DNA of 64,000 bases from Parcubacteria group bacterium (GCA_041661275.1 JBAZUU010000004.1:71480-135479), one strand, 5' to 3'. Counted from the first letter of the stretch, positions 1,568-63,540 are shown. The notes: generated from the letters alone by a model not told the origin. A program made the numbers and translations.

Positions 1568-2968
1568 ATGAAAATAGAAGATCTAAAAAACAAGAAAATA
1601 ACAGTTATGGGTCTCGGTCTTCATGGAGGCGGTGTGGCGATCGCGAAATTTTTGTGCGCGAATGGCGCCGTAGTTACCGTAACAGACATAAAATCCAAAG
1701 AAGAATTGGCGCCGTCAATTGAAAAACTGAAAAATTGCAAAAATATCACCTTTGTTTTTAATGCTCATCGGCCGGAAGATTTTACCAAGGTCGACATGAT
1801 AATCAAAAATCCGGCTGCACCCTGGACCAATAAATATGTAAAAATGGCGCTCGATGCAGGGATTCCGGTAGAAAGTGATTCCAGTTTGTTTTTCAAGTTT
1901 ACAAAAAACGAAATTATCGGCGTGACCGGAACAAAAGGAAAAACTACTACCGCTACCCTTATTTATGAAATTTTAAAAGCGGCCGGAAAATCGGTAATGA
2001 AAGTTGGCATTGGTCAGGTCAGTGTTCTTGATAAAATACCAGAACTCAAAAAAGATACAATTGTTGTTTTTGAGCTTTCTTCCTGGCGGCTGTCAGCTTT
2101 GGGACGACACAAACTGTCTCCTAAGGTTGCTGTTATCACTAATATATATCCAGACCATTTGAATTACTATAAAACAATGGAGGAATATCTGAATGATAAA
2201 AAATATATTTTTAAAAACCAAACTTCCAGCGATTGGTGCGTCATAAATCAGGATGATGCCAAGCTTGATATTTTGGAACCGGAAATAAAATCGCAAATAA
2301 TAAAATTTTCTAAGCAGAAGATTAATTCGGGGAAAACAGTTTATGCCGCGGATGGCGCTATCTATCTCAATAATGGGATAGATGAGAAAAAAATAATTGA
2401 TGTGGCGGATATAAAAATAAAGGGAGCGCATAATCGAGAGAATATTATGGCGGCTATCGCGGCGGTTTCTATATACAATATCGATCCTAAAATCATAAAA
2501 AAGACGATTGCCGAGTTTACGGGAGTTGCTCATAGATTAGAACTAGTCCGTGAACTTAACGGCGTGAAATATATAAACGATACGGCGGCTACCACTCCAG
2601 AATCAGCGATTTTTGGCCTCAATTCGTATTCTGAACCTATCATTCTCATCTGTGGCGGATCGGATAAAAATCTAGATGTGGCGGAATTCGGCGCAGAAAT
2701 AGTGAGAAAAGCCAAGGGAGTAATTTTTTTGAAAGGCGCGGCGACAGAAAAAATAATCGCGGCTATCAAAAATAATCTGCCCGAACTGGAAAAGTTTAAA
2801 TCATTCTCTATTGTTGACTCTATGGCTAAGGCCGTGGAACTGGCTCGATTAGAAGCTGTTTCTGGCGATATTGTCTTGCTTTCTCCTGGCGCCGCTAGTT
2901 TTGGAATGTTTCAAAATGAGTTTGACAGGGGGGACAAGTTTAAAGAAGCGGTAAAAGCGTTAAAATAA
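1568..2968 (+). CDS. murD: UDP-N-acetylmuramoyl-L-alanine--D-glutamate ligase MurD
   Basis: N-terminal Rossmann segment KKITVMGLGLHGGGVAIAKFL, Mur ligase P-loop GVTGTKGKTTTATL and a C-terminal Mur ligase domain. ATG at 1568 preferred over the upstream extension. Confidence 0.85.
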   Translation: MKIEDLKNKKITVMGLGLHGGGVAIAKFLCANGAVVTVTDIKSKEELAPSIEKLKNCKNITFVFNAHRPEDFTKVDMIIKNPAAPWTNKYVKMALDAGIPVESDSSLFFKFTKNEIIGVTGTKGKTTTATLIYEILKAAGKSVMKVGIGQVSVLDKIPELKKDTIVVFELSSWRLSALGRHKLSPKVAVITNIYPDHLNYYKTMEEYLNDKKYIFKNQTSSDWCVINQDDAKLDILEPEIKSQIIKFSKQKINSGKTVYAADGAIYLNNGIDEKKIIDVADIKIKGAHNRENIMAAIAAVSIYNIDPKIIKKTIAEFTGVAHRLELVRELNGVKYINDTAATTPESAIFGLNSYSEPIILICGGSDKNLDVAEFGAEIVRKAKGVIFLKGAATEKIIAAIKNNLPELEKFKSFSIVDSMAKAVELARLEAVSGDIVLLSPGAASFGMFQNEFDRGDKFKEAVKALK

Positions 2969-2971
2969 AAA

Positions 2972-2996
2972 ATCCCCAGTGATGGGGATTCTTTTA
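2972..2996 (+). terminator. Rho-independent terminator after murD
   Basis: Hairpin aatccccagtgatggggatt followed by cttttat. Confidence 0.6.
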
Positions 2997-3006
2997 TCCG
3001 TTTTGT

Positions 3007-3774
3007 TTAAAAAATCTTTTTTTTGATAACAAACTTATTTTTTAGCATACTCCCAAGAGTCGTTTTTATTGAATCTGTTATGTCGGAAAAATAATATACG
3101 TCATTTGCGTTTAATTTCCTTGGCATATTGGCAACTTCTTTAGCTATTTCACGGGCAGAACTTATCAGGTTTACTTTCGGATCGAGGATATCCAAAATTA
3201 TTTCTTCCAAGTAGGGATAGTGCGTGCAACCCAAAACCAAAACATCGACGCTGTCCTTTATATTGTCGAGATATTCCTTAGCGATCAATTTTGTTGCGGC
3301 ATGCTGGATCAATCCTTCTTCCACTAGCGGAACAAATAGCGGACAGGCCTTTTGTATCACTTCTATTTTGGAATTAACTTTTTTTATTTTGTCTCGATAA
3401 ATATTGCTCCTAATCGTTCCTGTTGTTCCAATTATTCCAACTTTATAATTTTTATTTTTTTCGGCTTCTAGCTTTATTTTTTCGATGACAGGATCGATTA
3501 CGTTATAAAATTTTATTTGGGTATATTTATTTTTTAAATGTTCGCTGGCCAGAGCTGAGGCAGTATTGCAGGCAATGATTATTTCTTTTATGCCTTGCTC
3601 GATAAAAAACCGACTTATTTCGTCGGCGTAACTAATTATCGTATCAGCGCTTTTATTTCCCCATGGATAGCGGGCGGTGTCGCCAAAATACATGACGGGA
3701 AATTTCGGATTTATCTTTTTCAATTCCGAAACAACAGAAAGCCCGCCGATACCGCTGTCAAAAATACCAATCAT
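3007..3774 (-). CDS. murI: Glutamate racemase MurI
   Basis: MIGIFDSGIGGLSVV... signature and both conserved Cys regions (IIACNTAS, VLGCTHYP). The start is trimmed to MIGIF because the longer ORF would overlap the tRNA. Confidence 0.85.
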   Translation of the reverse strand: MIGIFDSGIGGLSVVSELKKINPKFPVMYFGDTARYPWGNKSADTIISYADEISRFFIEQGIKEIIIACNTASALASEHLKNKYTQIKFYNVIDPVIEKIKLEAEKNKNYKVGIIGTTGTIRSNIYRDKIKKVNSKIEVIQKACPLFVPLVEEGLIQHAATKLIAKEYLDNIKDSVDVLVLGCTHYPYLEEIILDILDPKVNLISSAREIAKEVANMPRKLNANDVYYFSDITDSIKTTLGSMLKNKFVIKKKIF

Positions 3775-4858: not shown

Positions 4859-4956
4859 CCTACAAAATTACAAAATACATACAAAATTACAAAAGTACAA
4901 AGGCAGATAATATTTCGCAGTTTTGTATTTTTGTAAATTTTTGTATTTTTGTAGGG
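4859..4956. repeat. Imperfect palindrome (acaaaattacaaaa / ttttgtaatttt arms) between nusG and rplK
   Basis: cctacaaaattacaaaatacatacaaaattacaaaagtacaaa ... tttgtatttttgtaaatttttgtatttttgtaggg. The arms are reverse complements. Confidence 0.5.
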
Positions 4957-4964
4957 TTACGAAC

Positions 4965-5387
4965 ATGGCTAAGAAAGTAAAAACTATAATAAAGTTACAA
5001 ATTCCAGCGGGAAAAGCTAATCCGGCGCCTCCAGTGGGACCAGCCTTGGGTCAGCATGGTTTGAATATCCAGGAATTTTGCACCAAATTCAATGAGCAGA
5101 CTCGGGACAAGGGATCTGACATTATTCCGGCTGAAATTACTGTTTTTGAAGACAGAACTTTCACTTTTATCCTGAAAACTCCTCCGGCATCTGATCTTCT
5201 GCGAAAAGCAGCGGGAGTAGAAAAGGGCGCGGGGAATCCTCTAAAAGACAAAGTGGGAAAAATTTCTAAAGATAAACTGCGAGAAATTGCGGAAAAGAAA
5301 TTACCAGACCTCAATGCTAATGATGTAGAAGGAGCGGAGAAGATCATCGCCGGGACAGCAAGAAGTATGGGGATAAAGATTGAGTAG
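4965..5387 (+). CDS. rplK: 50S ribosomal protein L11
   Basis: [39 protein letters not shown] matches the L11 N-terminal domain. Confidence 0.9.
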
Positions 5388-10238: not shown

Positions 10239-10811
10239 ATGATTTTAGGGATCAAAGAGCTTCACCGGTTGGTTTCCGAACAAAAATTGGTAGAAAATTT
10301 GTGCGAGCGGGAAATGAATAATCCGGAAGGAGCGGGGTTTGATTTGCGACTGGGAGAAGTGTATGAAATGGTAAGTGACCCTTCGACAGGCTCAGGGCAA
10401 GATGGGTTCCTGGGAGTAGAAGAAAGGCAGACGCCGGAAATTAAGCTTGTTGCTAAAGATGATCCGACAAAAGAAGAAGCAGAAAATTTTTTTGTGTTCG
10501 AACCGGGAAAATATTATCTCATAAAAACGATGGAGAAAGTGAATCTGCCAGTAACACTTTCCGGAATAATTTTTCCGCGGACAACTATGTTTCGCTCGGG
10601 GCTGGGACTGTTTAATGGTGTGGTGCAACCCGGTTATCAAGGCGAACTGACTTTTGGCGTTTGCAATCTTGGAAAGAGCAATATAAAAGTTTCTTTTGGC
10701 GCTCGCGTGGTGCATATCACATTCCACGAAGTTTTGGGAGAAGGCAACCAATACCGCGGACAGTGGCAAGGCGGAAGAGTGGCAACGGGAGGGAAAGAAG
10801 TGCAGGTTTAA
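10239..10811 (+). CDS. dcd: dCTP deaminase
   Basis: GAGFDLRLGEVYEM, the dUTPase-fold motif GIIFPRTTMFRSGL, and GYQGELTFGVCNLG. Confidence 0.85.
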   Translation: MILGIKELHRLVSEQKLVENLCEREMNNPEGAGFDLRLGEVYEMVSDPSTGSGQDGFLGVEERQTPEIKLVAKDDPTKEEAENFFVFEPGKYYLIKTMEKVNLPVTLSGIIFPRTTMFRSGLGLFNGVVQPGYQGELTFGVCNLGKSNIKVSFGARVVHITFHEVLGEGNQYRGQWQGGRVATGGKEVQV

Positions 10812-13917: not shown

Positions 13918-14925
13918 TTATTTTTTCAAAAATTTATTTATTTCCGATTCTGTCTTTTTATACTCGTCAATCCATTTTATACGCGTATCTTTTCTGAACC
14001 ACGTCATCTGCCGTTTGGCATAGTCTTTTTCAGCTCGGAGTATTTTTTGAAATAGTTCCTCCTTGGTTGCGATCTCACCTCTGAGATACTTAGGAATCAA
14101 AAAGTATCCAAGACCAAAGCTTTCTATTTTTTTCCAGGACAGTTTTTCTTTGGAATGTAAATTTTCCACTTCCCTTATCATTCCTTTCGCGAATCTTTTT
14201 CGAAGACGTTTTTCAATGTTTTGGTGGAGTTTTTCTTTGGGGAGATTGATGCCGATCTGGAGAAAGTTATAATTACGTGGTTTTAATTTAGAACCCTCTC
14301 CTGTCGCGAAGACGCGACATCCTCTCCCGAGGGGAGAGGAGGAATTTCTTCTTCCACCCTCTCCCTTCGGGAGAGGGTCATTCGACGAAGTCGAATGGGG
14401 AGAGGGAACCTTACCTAACGTCTTACAAATTTCTATGGCTCTTATTAACCGTACTTTGTTTTTGGCGTCAATACTTTTGGCTCGCTGGGGATCTAGTTTT
14501 TTTAGCATTGTGAATAATTTTTCCGCCGAATAATTACGTAAATAATTACGTAATTTCCAATCAGGTTTTACTTCCGGGTAGATTACATTATCAACAATGG
14601 CTTTTATCCAAAAGCCAGTGCCTCCACAGATAATGGGCAATTTCCCACGTTTCAGGATATCCTTAATAATCTTTTCGGCATCTTTTTTAAATTTAGCGGC
14701 GTTGTAATTTGTTCGCGGACTGACGATATCAATCATATAATGTTTAGCTAGCTTCTGTTCAGCTTTAGTAATCTTACCTGTTCCAATATCCAGTCCGCGA
14801 TAGATTTGTCTTGAGTCAGCGGAAATAATTTCACCGTTGAATTTTTTGGCAAGTCGAATTGCCACATCCGATTTTCCGGAAGATGTGGAGCCGAGGATGA
14901 CGATTATCTTATTATTTCCTTCCAT
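13918..14925 (-). CDS. miaA: tRNA dimethylallyltransferase MiaA carrying in-frame palindromic insertions
   Basis: IIVILGSTSSGKSDVAIRLAKKFNGEIISADSRQIY P-loop. ~38 aa (PSPHSTSSNDPLPKGEGGRRNSSSPLGRGCRVFATGEG) derive from the palindromic repeat at 14294-14406. Confidence 0.85.
   Translation of the reverse strand: MEGNNKIIVILGSTSSGKSDVAIRLAKKFNGEIISADSRQIYRGLDIGTGKITKAEQKLAKHYMIDIVSPRTNYNAAKFKKDAEKIIKDILKRGKLPIICGGTGFWIKAIVDNVIYPEVKPDWKLRNYLRNYSAEKLFTMLKKLDPQRAKSIDAKNKVRLIRAIEICKTLGKVPSPHSTSSNDPLPKGEGGRRNSSSPLGRGCRVFATGEGSKLKPRNYNFLQIGINLPKEKLHQNIEKRLRKRFAKGMIREVENLHSKEKLSWKKIESFGLGYFLIPKYLRGEIATKEELFQKILRAEKDYAKRQMTWFRKDTRIKWIDEYKKTESEINKFLKK
14294..14406. repeat. Family-B palindromic element (two tandem CCCTCTCC...GGGAGAGG hairpins) inside the miaA CDS
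   Basis: ccctctcctgtcgcgaagacgcgacatcctctcccgaggggagagg + ccaccctctcccttcgggagagggtcattcgacgaagtcgaatggggagaggg. Related copies at 24565-24625 and 54688-54739. Confidence 0.6.
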
Positions 14926-16159
14926 ATCTTATTAACTCTCTTAAGACTTTTTCTCTCCTTTTCTTTTCCGGCAAATCGACCGTTTCTTTCATCTTCCACG
15001 CGGCAGTATCGGGGCGGGGAGAATATTTATTGATATATGCTTCATTGTAGCTGACAGTTTTGAAAACTTTTATTGACTCGGAGAAATCCTTTTTGGCTTC
15101 ACCCGGGAAGCCGACGATTATGTCAGTAGTAAATTCGGCTTCTGGAATTATTTTTTTTATCTTTTTAATGAGATTCAGATAATACTTTTGCGTGTATGGT
15201 CGGTTCATGGCCTTGAGAATCTTGTCGCTTCCAGCCTGGACAGGCAAATGGATCTCTCGGGAAATATTTTTGTTTTTGGCAATAACTTTTATCAGTTCGT
15301 TAGAAAAATCTTTGGGGTGAGAGGTTAAAAACTTGAAGCGAATTTGAGGGTTTGATTTGGCAAGGTAATCCAAGAGTTTCGGAAAGTCTACAGTGACAGA
15401 ATTTTTAATTTTTAATTTTAAATTTTTAATCAATTTTAAATTTCCTAATTTTGAATTTTTAAACTCATAGTTATAACTATTAACGTTCTGTCCGAGAAGA
15501 GTTATTTCTTTGCAGTCATTTTTTGTCAGCGATTTTATTTCTTTGATAATATCTTCTACGGGTCTCGAAATCTCTCTACCTCTGGCGTAGGGGACGACGC
15601 AATAGGAGCAGAAGTTGTTACAGCCGGTCATTATCGGCACGTACACTTTATTGTTGTTAATGTATTTTGGAATAATATCCAAATAAGAACCGTCATTCTG
15701 AGCGGAATGACCCCGCCCTTGGCGGGGGAATGTAGCCGAAGAATCTGCCTTTTGGGTTTTCTGGTTATATTTTTTAGTAGATCCTTCGACTACGTTCCGA
15801 TAAGAATCGGAACTTCGCTCAGGATGACGGACTAAGAGAGGTTTTAATTTTTCCGGAAAATTATTTATATTACAGAATAAATCAACCTTATCTTCTAATC
15901 TTCTTTGCACGTCTTTTCTGTCGGCAAGGCAGCCGGTGAGGATGATAGTAATTTTTGGGTTTGATTTTCGTAGATTATGCACAAGTCCATAAACCCTATT
16001 TTCCGCCGACTGACGCACGCCGCAAGTATTGAAAATCACCAAGTTGGCCTGGTTTATATCTTTGGTTGGTTTAATTCTATGCGTTTCTAGAAACCCAGCA
16101 ATTCGCTCGGAATCGCTTTCATTCATTTGACAGCCGAAAGTTTTGATGTAATATTTCAT
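14912..16159 (-). CDS. miaB: tRNA-i6A37 methylthiotransferase MiaB carrying an in-frame MITE insertion
   Basis: MKYYIKTFGCQMNESDSERIAG MTTase N-terminus and radical SAM GCNNFCSYC. A 47-codon insert (15690-15830) is the family-A repeat. Confidence 0.85.
   Translation of the reverse strand: MKYYIKTFGCQMNESDSERIAGFLETHRIKPTKDINQANLVIFNTCGVRQSAENRVYGLVHNLRKSNPKITIILTGCLADRKDVQRRLEDKVDLFCNINNFPEKLKPLLVRHPERSSDSYRNVVEGSTKKYNQKTQKADSSATFPRQGRGHSAQNDGSYLDIIPKYINNNKVYVPIMTGCNNFCSYCVVPYARGREISRPVEDIIKEIKSLTKNDCKEITLLGQNVNSYNYEFKNSKLGNLKLIKNLKLKIKNSVTVDFPKLLDYLAKSNPQIRFKFLTSHPKDFSNELIKVIAKNKNISREIHLPVQAGSDKILKAMNRPYTQKYYLNLIKKIKKIIPEAEFTTDIIVGFPGEAKKDFSESIKVFKTVSYNEAYINKYSPRPDTAAWKMKETVDLPEKKRREKVLRELIRYGRK
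15690..15830. repeat. Family-A MITE-like nested-hairpin repeat, copy 1 (141 bp, inside miaB CDS, in frame)
   Basis: ccgtcattctgagcggaatga...gaagaatctgcc...agatccttcgactacgttcc...cgctcaggatgacgg. Both the outer and the inner inverted repeats are present. Confidence 0.7.
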
Positions 16160-16224
16160 AGAAGTTCTTGTGGGTAAAGTGGTATCCATTAGGATACTAA
16201 AATATTAACGAATTATCAAGGAGG

Positions 16225-19042: not shown

Positions 19043-19111
19043 ACCCCGTCTCAAAAATTTGTCGAGAATAGCAATTCTCAAAAAACAAATTCTTGGGACG
19101 GGGCTCTTTTT
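19043..19111 (+). terminator. Long GC-rich hairpin terminator
   Basis: aaaccccgtctc...(internal gagaatagcaattctc hairpin)...gggacggggctc followed by tttttattt. Confidence 0.5.
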
Positions 19112-19352
19112 ATTTACGTAAATAATTACGTAATTAATTACTTACCTCGTGGTTCCACCCAAATTGCCCGACATATGTCGAACTACTCTTTAAGTTATAT
19201 CGTTAACTTACACCGGAGGTTCGGCGGATGGTTAGGCCGCGTCAACGCCTCATTTAGTTGTCACTATATAACATACATAAAAACTGGAAAAAAGTCAATT
19301 TTCAAAAACAAAATAGTGTGATAAGATAAAGAAAATTACTAACAAAAAACAT

Positions 19353-27903: not shown

Positions 27904-28033
27904 CCGTCATTCCGAGCGAGCACGAATGAAATGAAGTGCGAGTCGAGGAATCTGCCAAATGGGTTTACTAGTAATATTATTAAGTAGATCTCTCGACTCG
28001 CTCTCCCTATGGTCGAGCTCGCTCGAGATGACG
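27904..28033. repeat. Family-A MITE-like repeat, copy 2 (diverged)
   Basis: ccgtcattccgagcgagcacgaatgaaatgaagtgcgagtcgaggaatctgccaaat...agatctctcgactcgctc...gctcgagatgacg. Confidence 0.6.
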
Positions 28034-28452
28034 ATAAAATTGGAAATAATAAAAACCACCTGTTAAAGTAGTCTAAAAAAATTTCTCTGAATAATATATT
28101 ACCACCATACTTTTTTTATCCTCATAGCCCAGGTTGCCCTTTGGGATTTGCAGGATAGTTATGGATATATAGTAGCATACAATATTATAACAAAAAAGAC
28201 CCGGGTTTACCGGTCTTCTTTTTTGCTTTTTATTTTTCTCGAGATTTGTTGTTTTTTCTAAATCTATCTCTCATGATAAGATAGATTGAGAAATAATAAC
28301 CAAAGAACTTTACGAACCCCGCACTAATTCCGAGTAAAATATAATAAACATATAATTTTTACCACGGAATCGCCTGCGGCTTAAAATCGGATAACTTCAA
28401 AGTCTATTTCTTGAATTAGTGCGGGGCAGGCACCATATTATTTTACTACTGT

Positions 28453-29157
28453 ATGAAAAAACAGTCAATATCAAAAATACTAAAAACTGAACAAAAATAT
28501 CTGGACAATGGATACGATTTTGTTATTGGCATAGATGAGGCAGGACGGGGGCCGTTGGCGGGGCCAGTAGTGGCTTGCGCGGTTTGTTATAGGAATGGAG
28601 GCTCGGCCTCCATTATGGAGGCCGAGCCTCCAAAGCGATTTGAGTCAATAAAGGATAGTAAAAAGCTTTCTGAAAAGCAGCGGGAAGAATTATATGATTT
28701 TATACACGAGCATTTCCATGTCGGTATTGGAATCTGTGACCACAAAACAATCGATAGGATAAATATTTTGGAAGCGACGTATCTTTCTATGAAAAAAGCG
28801 CTTACCTTCCTAACATCCGATGTTAGGATGAATAAGATGATAGTGTTGGTCGATGGCAATAAAGTTATTCCCAATTGCAGTTATGAACAAAAAGCGATTG
28901 TTAACGGCGACAATATTGTGAAATCAATTTCGGCGGCTTCGATCATTGCCAAAGTGACGCGGGATCGGATGATGAAAAAAATGCACGATAAATATCCGAA
29001 GTATAATTTTGCTTCTCATAAGGGATATGGGACGAAATTGCATATGGAAATGATAAAAAAGCATGGAGCTTGTGAGATACATAGGAAGAGCTTTAGACCC
29101 TGCAATCTTAAGAGAGTCTCTTCTGCCCGTCATTCTGAGCGGAATCGAGTCCGTTAG
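28453..29157 (+). CDS. rnhB: Ribonuclease HII (C-terminus extended by read-through into a MITE copy; internal in-frame palindrome)
   Basis: FVIGIDEAGRGPLAGPVVACAV catalytic motif. An internal NGGSASIMEAEPPK segment is encoded by the perfect palindrome at 28597-28635. The last ~12 aa (ARHSERNRVR) come from the repeat at 29127. Confidence 0.85.
   Translation: MKKQSISKILKTEQKYLDNGYDFVIGIDEAGRGPLAGPVVACAVCYRNGGSASIMEAEPPKRFESIKDSKKLSEKQREELYDFIHEHFHVGIGICDHKTIDRINILEATYLSMKKALTFLTSDVRMNKMIVLVDGNKVIPNCSYEQKAIVNGDNIVKSISAASIIAKVTRDRMMKKMHDKYPKYNFASHKGYGTKLHMEMIKKHGACEIHRKSFRPCNLKRVSSARHSERNRVR
28597..28635. repeat. Perfect 15-bp-stem palindrome inside the rnhB CDS
   Basis: ggaggctcggcctcc attat ggaggccgagcctcc. 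Confidence 0.6.
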
Positions 29158-29263
29158 GACGAGATGAAGTCGAAGAATCTGCCAAATAATATTACTAGTG
29201 GTATTTTTGAGTAGATCCTTCGACTTCGTTCGGATAAAATCCTCACTACGCTCAGGATGACGG
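29127..29263. repeat. Family-A MITE-like repeat, copy 3 (overlaps the 3' end of rnhB)
   Basis: ccgtcattctgagcggaatcgagtccgttaggacgagatgaagtcgaagaatctgccaaat...agatccttcgacttcgttcgg...cgctcaggatgacgg. Confidence 0.7.
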
Positions 29264-29307: not shown

Positions 29308-30906
29308 ATGAAGGAAGAGATAAAAAAAGTCTTAAAAAAATCTTTAAACGAAACAAAAACCCAAGAAAACTGGGATATTTCTGAAATGCCTGAAATTGAA
29401 GTAGATTATCCTCGTGACGAGCAATTTGGCGATTTTACCACCAATATTGCTATGGTTTTGGCTAAAATTATCAAGAAAAACCCCTTGGAAATAGCGGCGG
29501 CTATAAAAGAAAACATCAAGTCCAATGTAATAAAAAATGTGGATATTGTCGCTCCGGGGTACATCAATGTTACCCTAAAAACGAAGTATTTGCAGAAAAT
29601 AGTGGCTCAAATCGCAGAATATGGCAAGAAATTCGGCGAAAATGACCTCGGAAAGGGTCAAAAGGTGCTTTTGGAGTTCATTTCATCCAATCCAACAGGT
29701 CCAATTCACATCGGAAATGCCCGAGGAGGGCCACTGGGCGACACTTTGGCGCGTGTTTTAGAGAAAACCGGCTATAAAACAGAGAGGGAATTCTATATCA
29801 ATGACTGGGGCAATCAGATCGAAATTCTGGGTCATTCAGTTTTAGGCGACAGTGAAGCGCAATATTCCGGCGACTATATCAAAATTCTTACGGAGAAAAT
29901 GGATAAAAAAATAACCAACCCGTTGGAAATCGGCCATTGGGCGGCGCATAAAATTATTCAAGAATATATCAAACCGACATGCAAAAAAGCGGGAATAAAA
30001 TTCGACAGTTGGTACAGTGAAAAAGATGAGTTGCACGAAAAAGATAAAGTAGGAGAAATAATAAAATTTATTGAAGAAAAGGGATTGACCTATGAAAAAG
30101 AAGGCGCGCTTTGGTATAAATCTATCCAGTTTGGTGATGACAAAGATCGAGTGCTAGTGAAATCCGATGGCAAAAAAACATACATTGCTACCGATTTTGC
30201 TTATCATAAAGAAAAAGCAGATAGGGGATATAATAAACTAATTAATATCCAAGGCGCCGACCATCACAAAGAGGCGGAAGTAGTGAAAAATTTTACGGAA
30301 AAAGTATTAGGTGCAAAAATAAAAGTTGATTATATCCTGACGCAAATTGTCAAAGTGGTTGAAAATGGAGTGGAGGTAAAAATGTCCAAAAGAAAGGGGA
30401 CATATTTTGCCCTTGATGATCTCATCGATGAAGTAGGAAAAGACGCGGTGCGGTTTATCTTCCTTTCCTATTCATCGACCAATCACATCAATTTCGATAT
30501 TAATTTAGCGAAAGTTCAATCAGACAAAAATCCGGTCTATTATGTCCAGTATGCTCACGCCAGAATATCTTCAATCCTCAAAAAGGCCAAGACTCTCAAT
30601 TTCAAATTCGATAAGAAAAATTCTGCCGAGCTTCTGACCCACGAAAAAGAGATAGGCCTCATCCGTGAACTTTCCAAATTTCCAGCGCTTCTCGAAGAAA
30701 TTTCCCAAAGTTATGAAGTGCACAGGCTGCCATTTTACGCTATGAAACTGGCCGATAAGTTCCATTCGTTCTATGGTGCTTGCAAAGTGCTGGACGAAAA
30801 GAATAGTGAACTGACACGCGCTAGACTAAACCTGGTGAATGCTGTTAAGATAGTACTAGCTGAAGTATTGGAGTTGATGGGAGTGGAGGCGCCGGAAAAA
30901 ATGTAG
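29308..30906 (+). CDS. argS: Arginyl-tRNA synthetase
   Basis: Class I motifs: SNPTGPIHIGNARGG (HIGH region) and a KMSK variant (KMSKRKG). C-terminal DALR anticodon-binding domain. Confidence 0.9.
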   Translation: MKEEIKKVLKKSLNETKTQENWDISEMPEIEVDYPRDEQFGDFTTNIAMVLAKIIKKNPLEIAAAIKENIKSNVIKNVDIVAPGYINVTLKTKYLQKIVAQIAEYGKKFGENDLGKGQKVLLEFISSNPTGPIHIGNARGGPLGDTLARVLEKTGYKTEREFYINDWGNQIEILGHSVLGDSEAQYSGDYIKILTEKMDKKITNPLEIGHWAAHKIIQEYIKPTCKKAGIKFDSWYSEKDELHEKDKVGEIIKFIEEKGLTYEKEGALWYKSIQFGDDKDRVLVKSDGKKTYIATDFAYHKEKADRGYNKLINIQGADHHKEAEVVKNFTEKVLGAKIKVDYILTQIVKVVENGVEVKMSKRKGTYFALDDLIDEVGKDAVRFIFLSYSSTNHINFDINLAKVQSDKNPVYYVQYAHARISSILKKAKTLNFKFDKKNSAELLTHEKEIGLIRELSKFPALLEEISQSYEVHRLPFYAMKLADKFHSFYGACKVLDEKNSELTRARLNLVNAVKIVLAEVLELMGVEAPEKM

Positions 30907-46942: not shown

Positions 46943-47079
46943 CCGTCATCCTGAGCGAAGTCCAATTCTTATTGGACGTAGTCGAAGGATCTGCTTGCTA
47001 ATAGCACGAGTAGTATTAATTAGTAGATTCTTCGACTGCATTCTCCCGCTTCGCGGGATCATTCCGCTCAGAATGACGG
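46943..47079. repeat. Family-A MITE-like repeat, copy 4 (inverted orientation)
   Basis: ccgtcatcctgagcgaagtccaattcttattggacgtagtcgaaggatctgc...agattcttcgactgcattctcccgcttcgcgggatcattccgctcagaatgacgg. Confidence 0.7.
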
Positions 47080-54292: not shown

Positions 54293-54382
54293 TTTTTTGA
54301 AAAATTGAATATCTTTTATAGAGACGCCCTGCCATGGCGTCTCTACTTTTCGGCTCTTTAATATTTAGTGTGTGCTTTTTAA

Positions 54383-54525
54383 CCGTCATTCTGAGCGGAA
54401 TCGAGTCCGTTTAGGACGAGATGAAGTCGAAGAATCTACTTTATGGCTAAACCAGGCAATATTATTGAGTAGATCCTTCGACTGCGTTCTTCCGCTAACG
54501 CGGAATCACTTCGCTCAGGATGACG
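54383..54525. repeat. Family-A MITE-like repeat, copy 5
   Basis: ccgtcattctgagcggaatcgagtccgtttaggacgagatgaagtcgaagaatct...agatccttcgactgcgttcttccgctaacgcggaatcacttcgctcaggatgacg. Confidence 0.7.
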
Positions 54526-54687
54526 AGCTTATATGGTCCAGTGTAAAACCTCGTTAAATGGCTTAACAAAAATAATTTTTAAACTTATCCACCACACTAA
54601 TTATTATAGAGCCTACTTTTCTTGCCAATTGAGCCAAAATATAGTAGGCTGAAGTGTGGTATTATTAATATAACCAACAATAATGTG

Positions 54688-58060: not shown

Positions 58061-58537
58061 TTATTTTATAAAAAGTATTATAATAGCCGCGACGGAAATT
58101 ATGAAGTCATTGGCAAAATTACGAAAGCTCCATTCCCGGAGCTTGGAGTTTTTGGGAATTTTGTTATAGCGATGGGCGAAATAATTAAAATCCCGGAGTT
58201 TTATAAAAACAGGATTTTCGGGAAAAACCTTATAGAGAAAAGTAAAAAGGTCAGGAAGGAGCGAGAAAGTGACTCCCAAAAGAATATTGTTAGAAATTCC
58301 GTCATAATTCATAAAAAGATAAACCAGAGAAGCGGTGATGGCCATAGCGGCCATAAAATCCAGAAGGACTTTCCAGGCAGAACTCCTCATGTTATTTTTC
58401 CGGTCATCCCAATAGTCGCCGTGCCTCAAACTATCCATTGCGTAATGCATAGTTAGCGACAGGATTATTATAAGCCATGGATTTGATACATTTTTTCCGA
58501 TAACTGCTCCGACCAGAGCATGAGTAGGTAGAATCAT
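58061..58537 (-). CDS. Hypothetical membrane protein (possibly YdjM/DUF457-like)
   Basis: MILPTHALVGAVIG N-terminus and 4 predicted TM segments. A MITE copy lies directly upstream of its start. Confidence 0.45.
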   Translation of the reverse strand: MILPTHALVGAVIGKNVSNPWLIIILSLTMHYAMDSLRHGDYWDDRKNNMRSSAWKVLLDFMAAMAITASLVYLFMNYDGISNNILLGVTFSLLPDLFTFLYKVFPENPVFIKLRDFNYFAHRYNKIPKNSKLREWSFRNFANDFIISVAAIIILFIK

Positions 58538-58545
58538 AAAATAGT

Positions 58546-58682
58546 CGTCATTCTGAGCGGAATCGAGTCCGTTTAGGACGAGATGCAGTCGAAGAATCTG
58601 CCAAATATTAGCACTAGTGATAATTTATAGCAGATCCTTCGACTACGTCCAATAAGAATTGGACTTCGCTCAGGATGACGGT
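58546..58682. repeat. Family-A MITE-like repeat, copy 6
   Basis: tcgtcattctgagcggaatcgagtccgtttaggacgagatgcagtcgaagaatctgccaaat...agatccttcgactacgtccaataagaattggacttcgctcaggatgacgg. Confidence 0.7.
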
Positions 58683-58723: not shown

Positions 58724-59425
58724 ATGCATACTGGTATATTATACATCGTCGCGACACCTATTGGCAACTTGGAGGATATCACATTCAGGGCTGTTTGGAC
58801 TTTAAAAGAGGTCGATTTAATTTTTTGTGAGGATACGCGGGTAACAAAAAGACTTCTAGATAAATATAATATTACTGCTGAAACAAGATCTTTCTATAAA
58901 TCCAGTGGAAGCGGCGCGCGAAAGCCGCAAGCCAATTTTGAATATATCTTGTCGGAGCTCGGCTCCGGTAAAGATGTGGCTTTTGTCACAGATGCCGGAA
59001 CACCAGGAATATCTGATCCGGGGAATACGCTCGCGGAAAAAGTTCTGGCCGAAGGTTTTGCTGTTATGCCAATCCCAGGAGTTTCCGCTCTCACGACTCT
59101 CGTGTCTGTTTCTGGAATTGATCTGACCCAATTTGTATTTTTAGGTTTTCCACCGCATAAAAAAGGCCGGGAAACATATTTCAAAAAATTATTGTCGTAT
59201 GATATTCCGGTGATATATTATGAATCCCCGCATCGATTGATAAAAAATTTAGAATTATTATCTGTCATTGCGAGCGAAGCGAAACAATCTCGTAACATTA
59301 TTTTGGGTCGCGAACTGACAAAAATGTTCGAAGAAGTCATTCGCGGCAGCGCGGAAGATATTTTGAGATATTTTGAGGAAAATAAGGGAAAAGTGAAGGG
59401 AGAGTTTGTAATTATTGTTTATTAA
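58724..59425 (+). CDS. rsmI: 16S rRNA (cytidine1402-2'-O)-methyltransferase RsmI
   Basis: GILYIVATPIGNLEDITFRAVWTLKEVDLIFCEDTR matches the tetrapyrrole-methylase-fold RsmI family. Confidence 0.85.
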   Translation: MHTGILYIVATPIGNLEDITFRAVWTLKEVDLIFCEDTRVTKRLLDKYNITAETRSFYKSSGSGARKPQANFEYILSELGSGKDVAFVTDAGTPGISDPGNTLAEKVLAEGFAVMPIPGVSALTTLVSVSGIDLTQFVFLGFPPHKKGRETYFKKLLSYDIPVIYYESPHRLIKNLELLSVIASEAKQSRNIILGRELTKMFEEVIRGSAEDILRYFEENKGKVKGEFVIIVY

Positions 59426-63143: not shown

Positions 63144-63452
63144 ATGGAAACAGATAAGAAAGATACAAAGAGGGCTCCATGGTGGCAGTCGGGGTTAGTG
63201 CTTTTCACAAAACTTTCCGGATGGATAATCGGGCCGGTACTTCTGGGAGTAATTTTGGGCAAATGGCTGGACAGGAAATATGGCACCGAGCCGTGGTTGT
63301 TTCTGGTCACAGTCGGAGTGGCGTTCTTCCTGTCGATGTTTGGGATAGTCAGAGATAGTTTGAGGGAGATGAAGAGGATAGAGGAAAAGGAAGTTAAAAA
63401 CAAGAAACAAGAAACAAGAAACAATAACCAAACAAATTCCAAATTACAATAA
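63144..63452 (+). CDS. AtpZ/AtpI-like ATP synthase-associated membrane protein
   Basis: APWWQSGLVLFTKLSGWIIGPVLLGVILGKWLDRKYGTEPWLFLVTVGVAFF and its position directly upstream of atpB. The C-terminal 20 aa are encoded by the repeat at 63395. Confidence 0.6.
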   Translation: METDKKDTKRAPWWQSGLVLFTKLSGWIIGPVLLGVILGKWLDRKYGTEPWLFLVTVGVAFFLSMFGIVRDSLREMKRIEEKEVKNKKQETRNNNQTNSKLQ

Positions 63453-63540
63453 TCAAATAATCAAGCAGATTGAGTTTTGAACAATTGGGTATTGAATTTT
63501 ATTTGTATCTTGTTACTTGGTCATTGGTTATTATATTTTT
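63395..63540. repeat. Family-C CAAAT/ATTTG-type imperfect palindrome (related to 1373-1560)
   Basis: aacaagaaacaagaaacaagaaacaataaccaaacaaattccaaattacaataatc...ttgaattttatttgtatcttgttacttggtcattggttatt. Shares caaacaaattccaaattacaa with the rc of the 1500-1530 region. Confidence 0.5.

Follow-up and report, generated by a model that had tools for sequence, protein, structure and literature searches.

The closest described relatives of the repeats considered here are the CGTC-tagged repetitive extragenic palindromic (REP) sequences, families CGTC-1 to CGTC-4, which have been reported from five phyla and mostly from alpha-proteobacteria (Di Nocera, De Gregorio & Rocco 2013, BMC Genomics 14:522; PMC3733652). 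Their defining tag is an unpaired CGTC (or TGTC/CCTC) at one end of the palindrome. Inverted dimers predominate, with spacers of 20-100 bp that are in some cases structured, and the units combine continuous 8-9-bp stems with 4-5-nt loops and, mostly, CCA tails; some units are intragenic, no association with a transposase was found, and in the 2013 account they had no dedicated enzyme. Neisseria dRS3 and the Rickettsia palindromic element (RPE) RPE-6 of R. conorii belong to CGTC-1, and RPE-4 to CGTC-4 (PMC3733652). In 2025 one subtype, NTS (CGTCATTCCCGCGMAVGCGGGAATCYRG, which contains dRS3), was described as the single-stranded DNA (ssDNA) target of a GIY-YIG nuclease, the 94-aa single-domain protein SsnA, by which it is bound and cut (Chenal et al. 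2025, Nat Commun 16:2388; PMC11893778). SsnA acts on ssDNA only, not on double-stranded DNA or RNA; the C directly 3' of the NTS palindrome is most crucial for binding, the three upstream bases govern cleavage, and the cut falls a few nucleotides upstream of the palindrome's tag (PMC11893778). Here we analyse a 64,000-nt stretch from a Parcubacteria group bacterium (GCA_041661275.1 JBAZUU010000004.1:71480-135479; hereafter the window), in which six copies of an inverted-repeat element occur, among them the copy at 54383-54526 on which this study is centred. A preliminary description had called this family both a miniature inverted-repeat transposable element (MITE) and REP-like. We conclude that the window elements represent a branched form, with an interrupted stem, of the known CGTC-tagged REP and Ssn-related repeats, present as inverted dimers in a genome of the candidate phyla radiation (CPR).

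Four aspects of these elements go beyond the published picture. The tag, the stem start and the 3' C of the known repeats are carried by an arm whose interior is branched and unlike theirs, and which the published motif misses; near-identical 14-nt termini are present in at least 12 phyla, the ultra-small CPR genomes included; the broader arm type is strongly concentrated around small GIY-YIG genes; and the repeats can be maintained in frame within genes of essential type over long evolutionary times.

Anatomy and fold of the arms

Each arm of the window elements consists of the CGTC tag, ATYCT, GAGCG, a variable hairpin, GTCGA, AGRAT and a final C, and each dimer of two such arms in inverted orientation, tags outermost, separated by a 33-40-nt spacer to give a unit of about 135 nt. 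All 12 window arms have CGTC ahead of the stem, open the stem as AT(T/C)C(T/C)...(A/G)G(A/G)AT, and carry both GTC 5' of the palindrome and C 3' of it, with 3' tails that read CTG or CTA. The same features extend to the element loci of other genomes, where the stem follows a CGTC tag in 222 of about 260 arms and the base 3' of the palindrome is C in 218 of these 222 CGTC-tagged arms, under a pattern that does not require a C. When the window arms are pooled with those of 120 loci from other genomes, the three bases that follow GTCAT are complementary to the three that precede AT-C in 284 of 305 arms (93%), and five covarying triplet types are represented (CCT/AGG, CCC/GGG, TCT/AGA, TCC/GGA and GCT/AGC). 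This covariation is evidence for a helix within each arm.

The interior of the arm is where the window elements are distinctive. In the window arms five Watson-Crick pairs are followed by GAGCG/GTCGA, which can contribute G.A, A.G and G-C only, and then by a hairpin insert of 20-29 nt. The simplest relatives have the arm CGTC-ATCCT-GAGCG-N-AGCGA-AGGAT-C, in which the stem is laid out as 5 bp, GA/AG, 2 bp and a GNA triloop; their interior is able to form tandem G.A pairs, and their GAGCG-N-AGCGA core equates to a GC-GNA-GC mini-hairpin with N free (CA 41, TA 28, AA 19). GCGNAGC is, as outlined in PMC13037366, a hyperstable DNA mini-hairpin motif. The core of the simple relatives matches this motif, and the window variant carries its 20-29-nt hairpin in place of that apex.

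Since the stem of each window arm is interrupted and bears this extra hairpin, the dimer folds as a four-way junction, whose outer stem is 14-17 bp long and whose other branches are a long central hairpin and two side hairpins that vary in sequence among copies but are always paired. Every copy is much more stable than its shuffles, with fold z-scores of -7.9 to -10.0 for RNA on one strand and -5.9 to -8.4 for DNA on the other. In an RNAalifold alignment of eight copies the outer and inner stems were retained, with double changes at seven pairs. In the copy at 27904-28034, a U-A pair of the outer stem has become C-G by compensatory change (alignment columns 13/140). The long hairpin also has two conserved mismatches (outer stem T.G, inner stem A.C), and these exist because each arm is self-complementary in its own right (ATTCT..AGAAT on the left, ATCCT..AGGAT on the right). 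A single-stranded dimer can take either of two shapes, a pair of arm hairpins or the four-way junction. The nested double hairpin of the preliminary description is incomplete, lacking the two side hairpins.

The flagged copy (54383-54526, plus strand) illustrates this layout and is predicted to fold as a four-way junction at -68.3 kcal/mol (z -9.25). Its left arm, a pattern match on the plus strand at 54384-54437, comprises the CGTC tag (54384-54387), the ATTCT stem half (54388-54392), GAGCG (54393-54397), the variable apical hairpin (54398-54425), GTCGA (54426-54430), the AGAAT stem half (54431-54435) and C at 54436. The variable spacer (54438-54470, no strand assigned), which is the least conserved block of the alignment, forms the apex of the central hairpin, and the right arm follows on the minus strand at 54471-54525 with CGTC, ATCCT, GAGCG, an apical hairpin (GATTCCGCG ttag CGCGGAA), GTCGA, AGGAT and C.

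Small GIY-YIG genes flanked by related arms

A candidate partner came from the 13 short intervals between two elements that were examined for partner genes. In one of these, from a Rhodothermaceae metagenome-assembled genome (MAG; locus L047), a 110-aa open reading frame (ORF) encodes a GIY-YIG protein (PF01541, E 6e-16) and has branched CGTCATCCCGAGCG-type dimers on both sides. We used as a partner test set 80 metagenome loci that encode homologues of the L047 protein at 42-58% identity. Near the GIY-YIG genes of these loci, neither the strict pattern [CT]GTCAT+triplet nor the published SRM search string, HGTCWYN(0-2)YYVSBRHN(0-5)WNVSBRGN(0-2)RNCYNB (PMC11893778), was enriched. Reading of the flanks revealed related arms with other tags, such as ccgttcGTCCTGAGCTTGTCGAAGGAC, cctcATCCTGAGGAGC[hairpin]GTCTCGAAGGATg and ccgttcGTGTCGAGCGAAGTCGAGACAC, and a generalised arm pattern, X5-GAG[CG]-N0-60-CGA-rc(X5), was therefore adopted. 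In the 64-kb window this pattern returns exactly the 12 window arms, both arms of the flagged copy included, and nothing else.

Under the generalised pattern, which was devised after the flanks of these loci had been read, an arm lies within 250 nt of the GIY-YIG gene in 61 of the 80 loci and arms lie on both sides in 29 of them. Per kb there are 3.15 arms close to the gene and 0.136 in the remainder of these loci, a 23-fold difference, and the loci hold 157 arms in total against 23 in a mononucleotide shuffle. The arms are also oriented: upstream, the arm closest to the gene faces it ('+') in 29 loci and faces away in 14, and downstream the closest arm faces back towards it ('-') in 36 and away in 12. 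Together with a median gap of about 30 nt between arm and gene, this orientation indicates that the nuclease gene occupies the position held by the spacer in gene-less dimers. The same arm-gene-arm layout is seen in a Rhodospirillales MAG (L048) and in a low-GC contig (L205), and in three loci (L198, L200 and L202) the gene-flanking arms have an extra apical hairpin like those of the window. CGTC-tagged GAGG variants stand beside a nuclease gene in two further loci (L184 and L190). The flanked genes are small (about 82-113 aa) and single-domain, and belong to a very large family: at least 8000 relatives score as significant, and their annotations read 'GIY-YIG nuclease family protein' or 'putative endonuclease'. 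When a profile search was directed at a CPR homologue, most of the names among its matches were those of Bacteroidota.

Three further observations were made in these loci. Many database entries for GIY-YIG proteins of about 95 aa are annotated as 130-170 aa long (P0126-P0245), probably because the over-long gene calls read through the upstream hairpin repeat. The Rhodospirillales MAG carries CCTC-tagged GAGGAGC arms at its GIY-YIG gene and CGTC-tagged GAGCG dimers 2 kb away (1101-1200, 2965-3083 and 4863-5281), and such arm subfamilies side by side hint at several nuclease-repeat pairs per genome. In another locus (L182) about 800 bp separate the GIY-YIG gene from an NTS-like dimer, beside which there is no second nuclease gene.

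Taking this association together with the precedent of SsnA, we think it reasonably likely that the window elements serve a small GIY-YIG nuclease as ssDNA recognition sites, and that they are non-autonomous relatives of the arm-nuclease-arm units. The partner gene is present beside such arms in other genomes, and for the Parcubacteria host we infer its existence. Several results weigh against this interpretation. No GIY-YIG gene was found in the window or in the 77 kb of host contig that were read, either by regular expression or with a nuclease hidden Markov model. The arms that flank GIY-YIG genes elsewhere are tagged mainly with CGTTC (54) or CCTC (35), and only five with CGTC. The exact CGTC/GAGCG subtype stands beside a nuclease gene once, in L047, a contig so dense in elements that the adjacency could be due to chance. 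The flanked nucleases have as their closest PDB entries the UPF0213 proteins 1ZG2 (E 3e-20) and 1YWL, and may lie inside or outside the characterised Ssn clade (cd10448). Lastly, the SRM string has no match in the window, 12 in the 0.89 Mb of element loci and two in the 0.32 Mb of GIY-YIG loci.

It is plausible, by analogy with SsnA on NTS, that each arm would serve as a recognition site bound only when single-stranded, as may occur during replication, repair or DNA uptake. In this model specificity would depend on the GTC tag and the 3' C, and cleavage would occur a few nucleotides outside the tag, a position that would place one nick just outside each end of the dimer, on opposite strands. 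The elements could then spread by nuclease-initiated copying or recombination and not by DDE transposition, because no target-site duplication is left; exchange between copies would give rise to mosaic arms, and copies would persist where they are harmless, in intergenic DNA or in frame in tolerant protein linkers. The lack of target-site duplications and the mosaic sharing of arms (repeat families D1 and D10) point to recombination or copy-repair rather than transposition.

A wider proposal is possible, to which we give somewhat less than even weight. The window elements may be gene-less members of a pan-bacterial system, spanning at least 12 phyla including CPR/Patescibacteria, in which a very large UPF0213-like clade of stand-alone GIY-YIG proteins would be partnered with X5-GAG(C/G)...CGA-X5' hairpins. 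Such a system would be a GIY-YIG analogue of REPIN-RAYT, broader than the Ssn/SRM definition and missed by it, and in reduced CPR genomes its repeats would be kept in frame in housekeeping proteins by concerted evolution with each genome's own repeat population. If the nuclease link is true, many new hairpin-nuclease pairs would become available as candidate programmable ssDNA cutters, and there would be a way to ask how repeats spread without transposases.

Copies, distribution and in-frame insertions

The terminal 14-mer CGTCATYCTGAGCG, allowing at most two mismatches, matches the window 12 times, twice in each copy, against 0.33 matches expected, and none of 100 shuffles reached 12. The six dimers could be aligned with MAFFT, and both the outer inverted repeat (CGTCATTCTGAGCG / CGCTCAGGATGACG) and the inner one (GTCGAAGAATCT / AGATCCTTCGAC) are invariant or nearly so across them. 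The preliminary description had listed six copies in both orientations at a density of about one per 10 kb, with highly similar ends; all of this holds, as does its view of the family as REP-like, given the CGTC tag, the AT-initiated stem of the published superfamily and the inverted-dimer layout.

The neighbours of the copies are housekeeping genes. The flagged copy lies between the end of glyS (54292) and the start of a Nif3-family gene (54742). Straight after glyS and upstream of the element, at 54320-54350, is a GC-rich hairpin followed by a T-run (agagacgccctgccatggcgtctctacttttc) that looks like the real intrinsic terminator of glyS, and the element would therefore not be needed for termination there. 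The copy at 27904-28034 (plus strand), which is the most diverged and has TCC/CTC stem variants, lies between the divergent genes dnaE (minus strand, start 27879) and rnhB (start 28453). A third copy (29127-29263, plus strand) overlaps the 3' end of rnhB, whose ORF ends at 29157, with argS downstream at 29308. The copy in the opposite orientation (46943-47079, minus strand) is found between recO (end 46923) and a DUF11-repeat gene (47144). The copy at 58545-58681 (plus strand), between a divergent 158-aa ORF (58061-58537, minus strand) and rsmI (58724), is a mosaic, with a left arm like that of the flagged copy and a right-arm hairpin like that of the copy at 46943; the left arms of the copies at 54383 and 58546 are 98% identical over 54 nt (repeat family D10). 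The remaining copy (15690-15830, plus strand) lies within the MiaB ORF. Thus, outside MiaB and rnhB, the window copies are located between co-directional or divergent genes. Elsewhere between genes, the palindromic motif TAATTACGTAAATAATTACGTAATT (family D15) occurs at two intergenic sites, 14531-14555 and 19111-19147, in tandem at the second, and may serve as an operator-like site.

The family extends beyond the window: two further copies lie between ATP-synthase genes in the 7.4 kb of the same contig past the right end of the window, and the 5.7 kb past its left end has none, giving eight dimer copies of which five are intergenic. A search of GTDB species representatives with CGTCATYCYGAGCG-N95-125-CGCTCRGRATGACG returned at least 120 loci, and among the matches listed the same termini, nearly identical over 14 nt, occur in at least 12 phyla. 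The isolates among these matches are Hymenobacter spp., Adhaeribacter, Terriglobus, Acidobacterium and Bifidobacterium vespertilionis, and the MAGs include Verrucomicrobiota, Gemmatimonadota, Armatimonadota, Chloroflexota, Nitrospirota, Planctomycetota, Bacillota, Coriobacteriales, alpha- and gamma-proteobacteria, Marinimicrobia and Patescibacteria. Many of the elements in other genomes are plain long hairpins, and others resemble the window copies in having one or two side hairpins. A full-text literature search for the terminal 13-mers found unrelated primers only. In one of the loci (L089, 4347-5338) the termini are amplified in tandem, as 13 identical 67-nt units made up of the left arm and part of the spacer, followed by six 21-nt right-terminus units; this 67-nt-period array was considered as a CRISPR and rejected, being a plain tandem repeat of identical units. 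Tandem amplification of termini is also seen in L009, L033, L063 and L091, and suggests either slippage or repeated cycles in which the tag is cut and rejoined.

The preliminary description held that the elements have no coding capacity, which is wrong for two of the six copies. The copy in MiaB (ORF 14912-16189, minus strand) is 141 nt long and adds 47 in-frame codons (VRHPERSS...HSAQNDG) to the linker between the UPF0004 and radical-SAM domains, and positions 29127-29157 of the rnhB copy supply the C-terminal 10 codons of RNase HII together with its stop codon. The window MiaB protein is identical to that of a Parcubacteria-group MAG (GCA_041665805.1, contig JBAYID010000004.1). In two orthologues from other metagenomes, L122 and L123, with about 70% amino acid identity, an element sits at the identical codon boundary (...LL/CCGTCAT...ATGACGG/TTCTTATTT, slashes marking the boundaries); their side hairpins differ and one has a duplicated terminus. 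The inserted peptides vary among orthologues and the DNA palindrome is kept. More distant Parcubacteria MiaB proteins (P0004, P0010 and P0045; alignment columns 140-205) have sister-subfamily peptides in the same linker with the same right boundary (...KATKQS...ARNDK/SYL and ...AKQSRN...LPRNDN/YL). The MiaB site is either an old insertion evolving in concert with the repeats of each genome or a hot spot. A search of the MiaB insert peptides against NCBIfam, the RPE1 model included, gave no match at E <= 10.

Single arms are also present in frame. One belongs to a sister subfamily with a TGTC tag, an ATTGC/ACAAT stem and a GAGCGAAGCGA core (TGTCATTGCGAGCGAAGCGAAACAATCTC); it lies at 59262-59291 on the plus strand within the ORF of the methyltransferase gene rsmI (58724-59425) and encodes SVIASEAKQSR. 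A second sister subfamily (GCCCT-GAGC-CT-GTCGA-AGGGT, with one stem mismatch; GCCCTGAGCCTGTCGAAGGGT) is represented at 10376-10400 on the minus strand, where it encodes DPSTGSGQ within an ORF of the dCTP deaminase/dUTPase family (10239-10811); in other genomes, with L148 and L176 as examples, GIY-YIG genes are flanked by arms of this type whose stem is perfect (...AGGGC). In-frame repeats of this kind can persist within essential-type genes over long evolutionary periods, and they give rise to spurious ORFs and peptide motifs in MAG annotation (...RHPERS..., ...SLRMT and VIASEAKQS). The same MiaB protein has a second low-complexity, repeat-like segment, KNSKLGNLKLIKNLKLKIKNS, in another variable region (protein columns ~280-300), and 'KLKI/NSKL' peptides like it occur in several Parcubacteria orthologues; a pair of 77-nt A-rich direct repeats (family D7) is found at the ends of the window, at 1355-1431 and 63384-63460. 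The MiaB segment and the A-rich repeat may represent another in-frame repeat family.

Alternative origins and comparison with known systems

A classical MITE, that is, a deletion derivative of an insertion sequence (IS) with a DDE transposase, mobilised in trans through its 14-bp terminal inverted repeats, would be small and multicopy, with perfect or near-perfect terminal repeats, both orientations and sites at gene boundaries, all of which the window elements display. The mobility tests nevertheless make this origin highly improbable, and do not bear out the MITE label of the preliminary description in its strict sense. Around 147 elements, direct repeats of 2-8 nt stayed at chance level at four boundary offsets, which means that no target-site duplication is detected, and the flank logo showed no target motif, with only C at -2 enriched (58%) and the rest random. 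Clustering of the ORFs in the 120 sampled element-bearing loci (0.89 Mb) revealed no recurrent transposase or IS family, only ABC ATPases, dehydrogenases and kinases, and the gene and Pfam tables for the 77 kb of host contig read list no transposase. The conserved inner partner that covaries with the terminus of the same arm, and the arms that occur alone, are likewise unexpected for an element defined by its terminal repeats only. PLSDB plasmids gave one weak partial match and two scans of IMG/VR viral contigs gave none, and carriage by plasmids or phages is therefore not supported. Mobilisation by a single-copy RAYT, the Y1 (HUH) tyrosine transposase of the IS200/IS605 family that serves REPINs, would fit the lack of target-site duplications, the ssDNA hairpin logic and the architecture of two inverted hairpins with a conserved 5' tetranucleotide and a spacer, features that REPINs share as outlined in PMC3116915 and PMC3337134. 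We still regard it as improbable, given that the tag is CGTC and not GTAG or GTGG, that the 2013 survey found no transposase association for CGTC REPs (PMC3733652), that no Y1 gene was seen in the element loci, and that the gene bracketed by arms, the one recurrent partner identified, encodes a GIY-YIG nuclease.

The elements might alternatively act primarily at the RNA level, as a 3'-UTR stabiliser, terminator, processing site or small RNA. The very stable folds (RNA z down to -10), the several copies between co-directional genes and the outer-stem U.G pair conserved in 8/8 sequences would all be consistent with such a role, and E. coli REPs act as 3'-UTR elements, as outlined in bioRxiv 10.64898/2026.03.23.713779. 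That wobble, however, is offset by the A.C mismatch of the inner stem, with the result that neither strand is favoured; copies are found in either orientation, and some lie in divergent promoter regions or within ORFs; the mini-hairpin core with its GNA loop is a DNA motif; and the RNA form of NTS is not bound by SsnA (PMC11893778). Rfam likewise offers no match: at the gathering threshold the window contains two tRNAs only, and at E <= 10 the region 54300-54620 has chance-level matches only (E 3.8-8.3). We therefore judge an RNA-level primary function unlikely, though RNA-level effects are a possible side function of the elements. Least probable, on a par with the MITE, is a protein-level module, in which the repeats would be kept for useful peptide insertions, as suggested for Rickettsia RPE. 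The in-frame inserts in MiaB, rsmI and dcd, the C-terminal extension of RNase HII and the recurrence of the MiaB insert at the same site in orthologues of about 70% identity might be taken to favour it, but most of the eight dimers are intergenic, the MiaB inserts lie in a variable linker and match neither RPE1 nor any other NCBIfam model, and it is the DNA palindrome, not the peptide, that orthologues keep.

Having weighed these alternatives, we return to the interpretation of the elements as CGTC-tagged REP relatives that are probably recognised by a small GIY-YIG nuclease, and to the systems that they most resemble. The CGTC REPs share with the window arms an unpaired CGTC tag, a stem starting A-T, T-A, inverted dimers, units inside ORFs, no adjacent transposase and a range of several phyla. 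They differ in their stem, which is continuous, whereas that of the window arms is a 5-bp stem clamping GAGCG...GTCGA and a 20-29-nt hairpin; in their CCA tail, of which only the first C is common to the CTG or CTA tail of the window arms; and in their published range of five phyla, compared with a Parcubacteria (CPR) MAG as host here and the same termini in at least 12 phyla. The resemblance to NTS and the SRM definition is closest for the TCC-type arms, whose first 9 nt (CGTCATTCC) and last 6 nt (GGAATC) are identical to it. The upstream GTC and the 3' C are conserved, and in other genomes arms of the broader type bracket a small GIY-YIG gene in an IS-like arm-gene-arm layout. The apical half is distinct, being CGCG-MAV-GCG in NTS and GAGCG...GTCGA in the window arms. 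The nucleases flanked here resemble UPF0213 proteins, and no nuclease gene is near the window copies in the 77 kb of host contig read; the link of the Ssn system to natural transformation was shown in Neisseria.

The Rickettsia RPE (Ogata et al. 2000) offer a parallel for the in-frame copies, as palindromes of about 100-150 bp inserted in frame in the housekeeping ORFs of a reduced genome with the ORFs left intact. Unlike them, the window peptide has no match to RPE1 or another NCBIfam model, and RPE-4 and RPE-6 are linked to the window elements only through the CGTC-REP superfamily (PMC3733652). REPIN-RAYT (Bertels & Rainey 2011) is set apart by its GTAG tag, its Y1/HUH transposase and its lineage-specific occurrence, mostly in gamma-proteobacteria, whereas here the candidate enzyme is a GIY-YIG nuclease and the arms are shared across phyla. 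In its logic it nonetheless resembles the window elements, as two inverted REP hairpins with a spacer, abundant and dispersed, that leave no target-site duplication and presumably depend on an ssDNA-hairpin-recognising protein encoded by a gene with the same repeats on its flanks.

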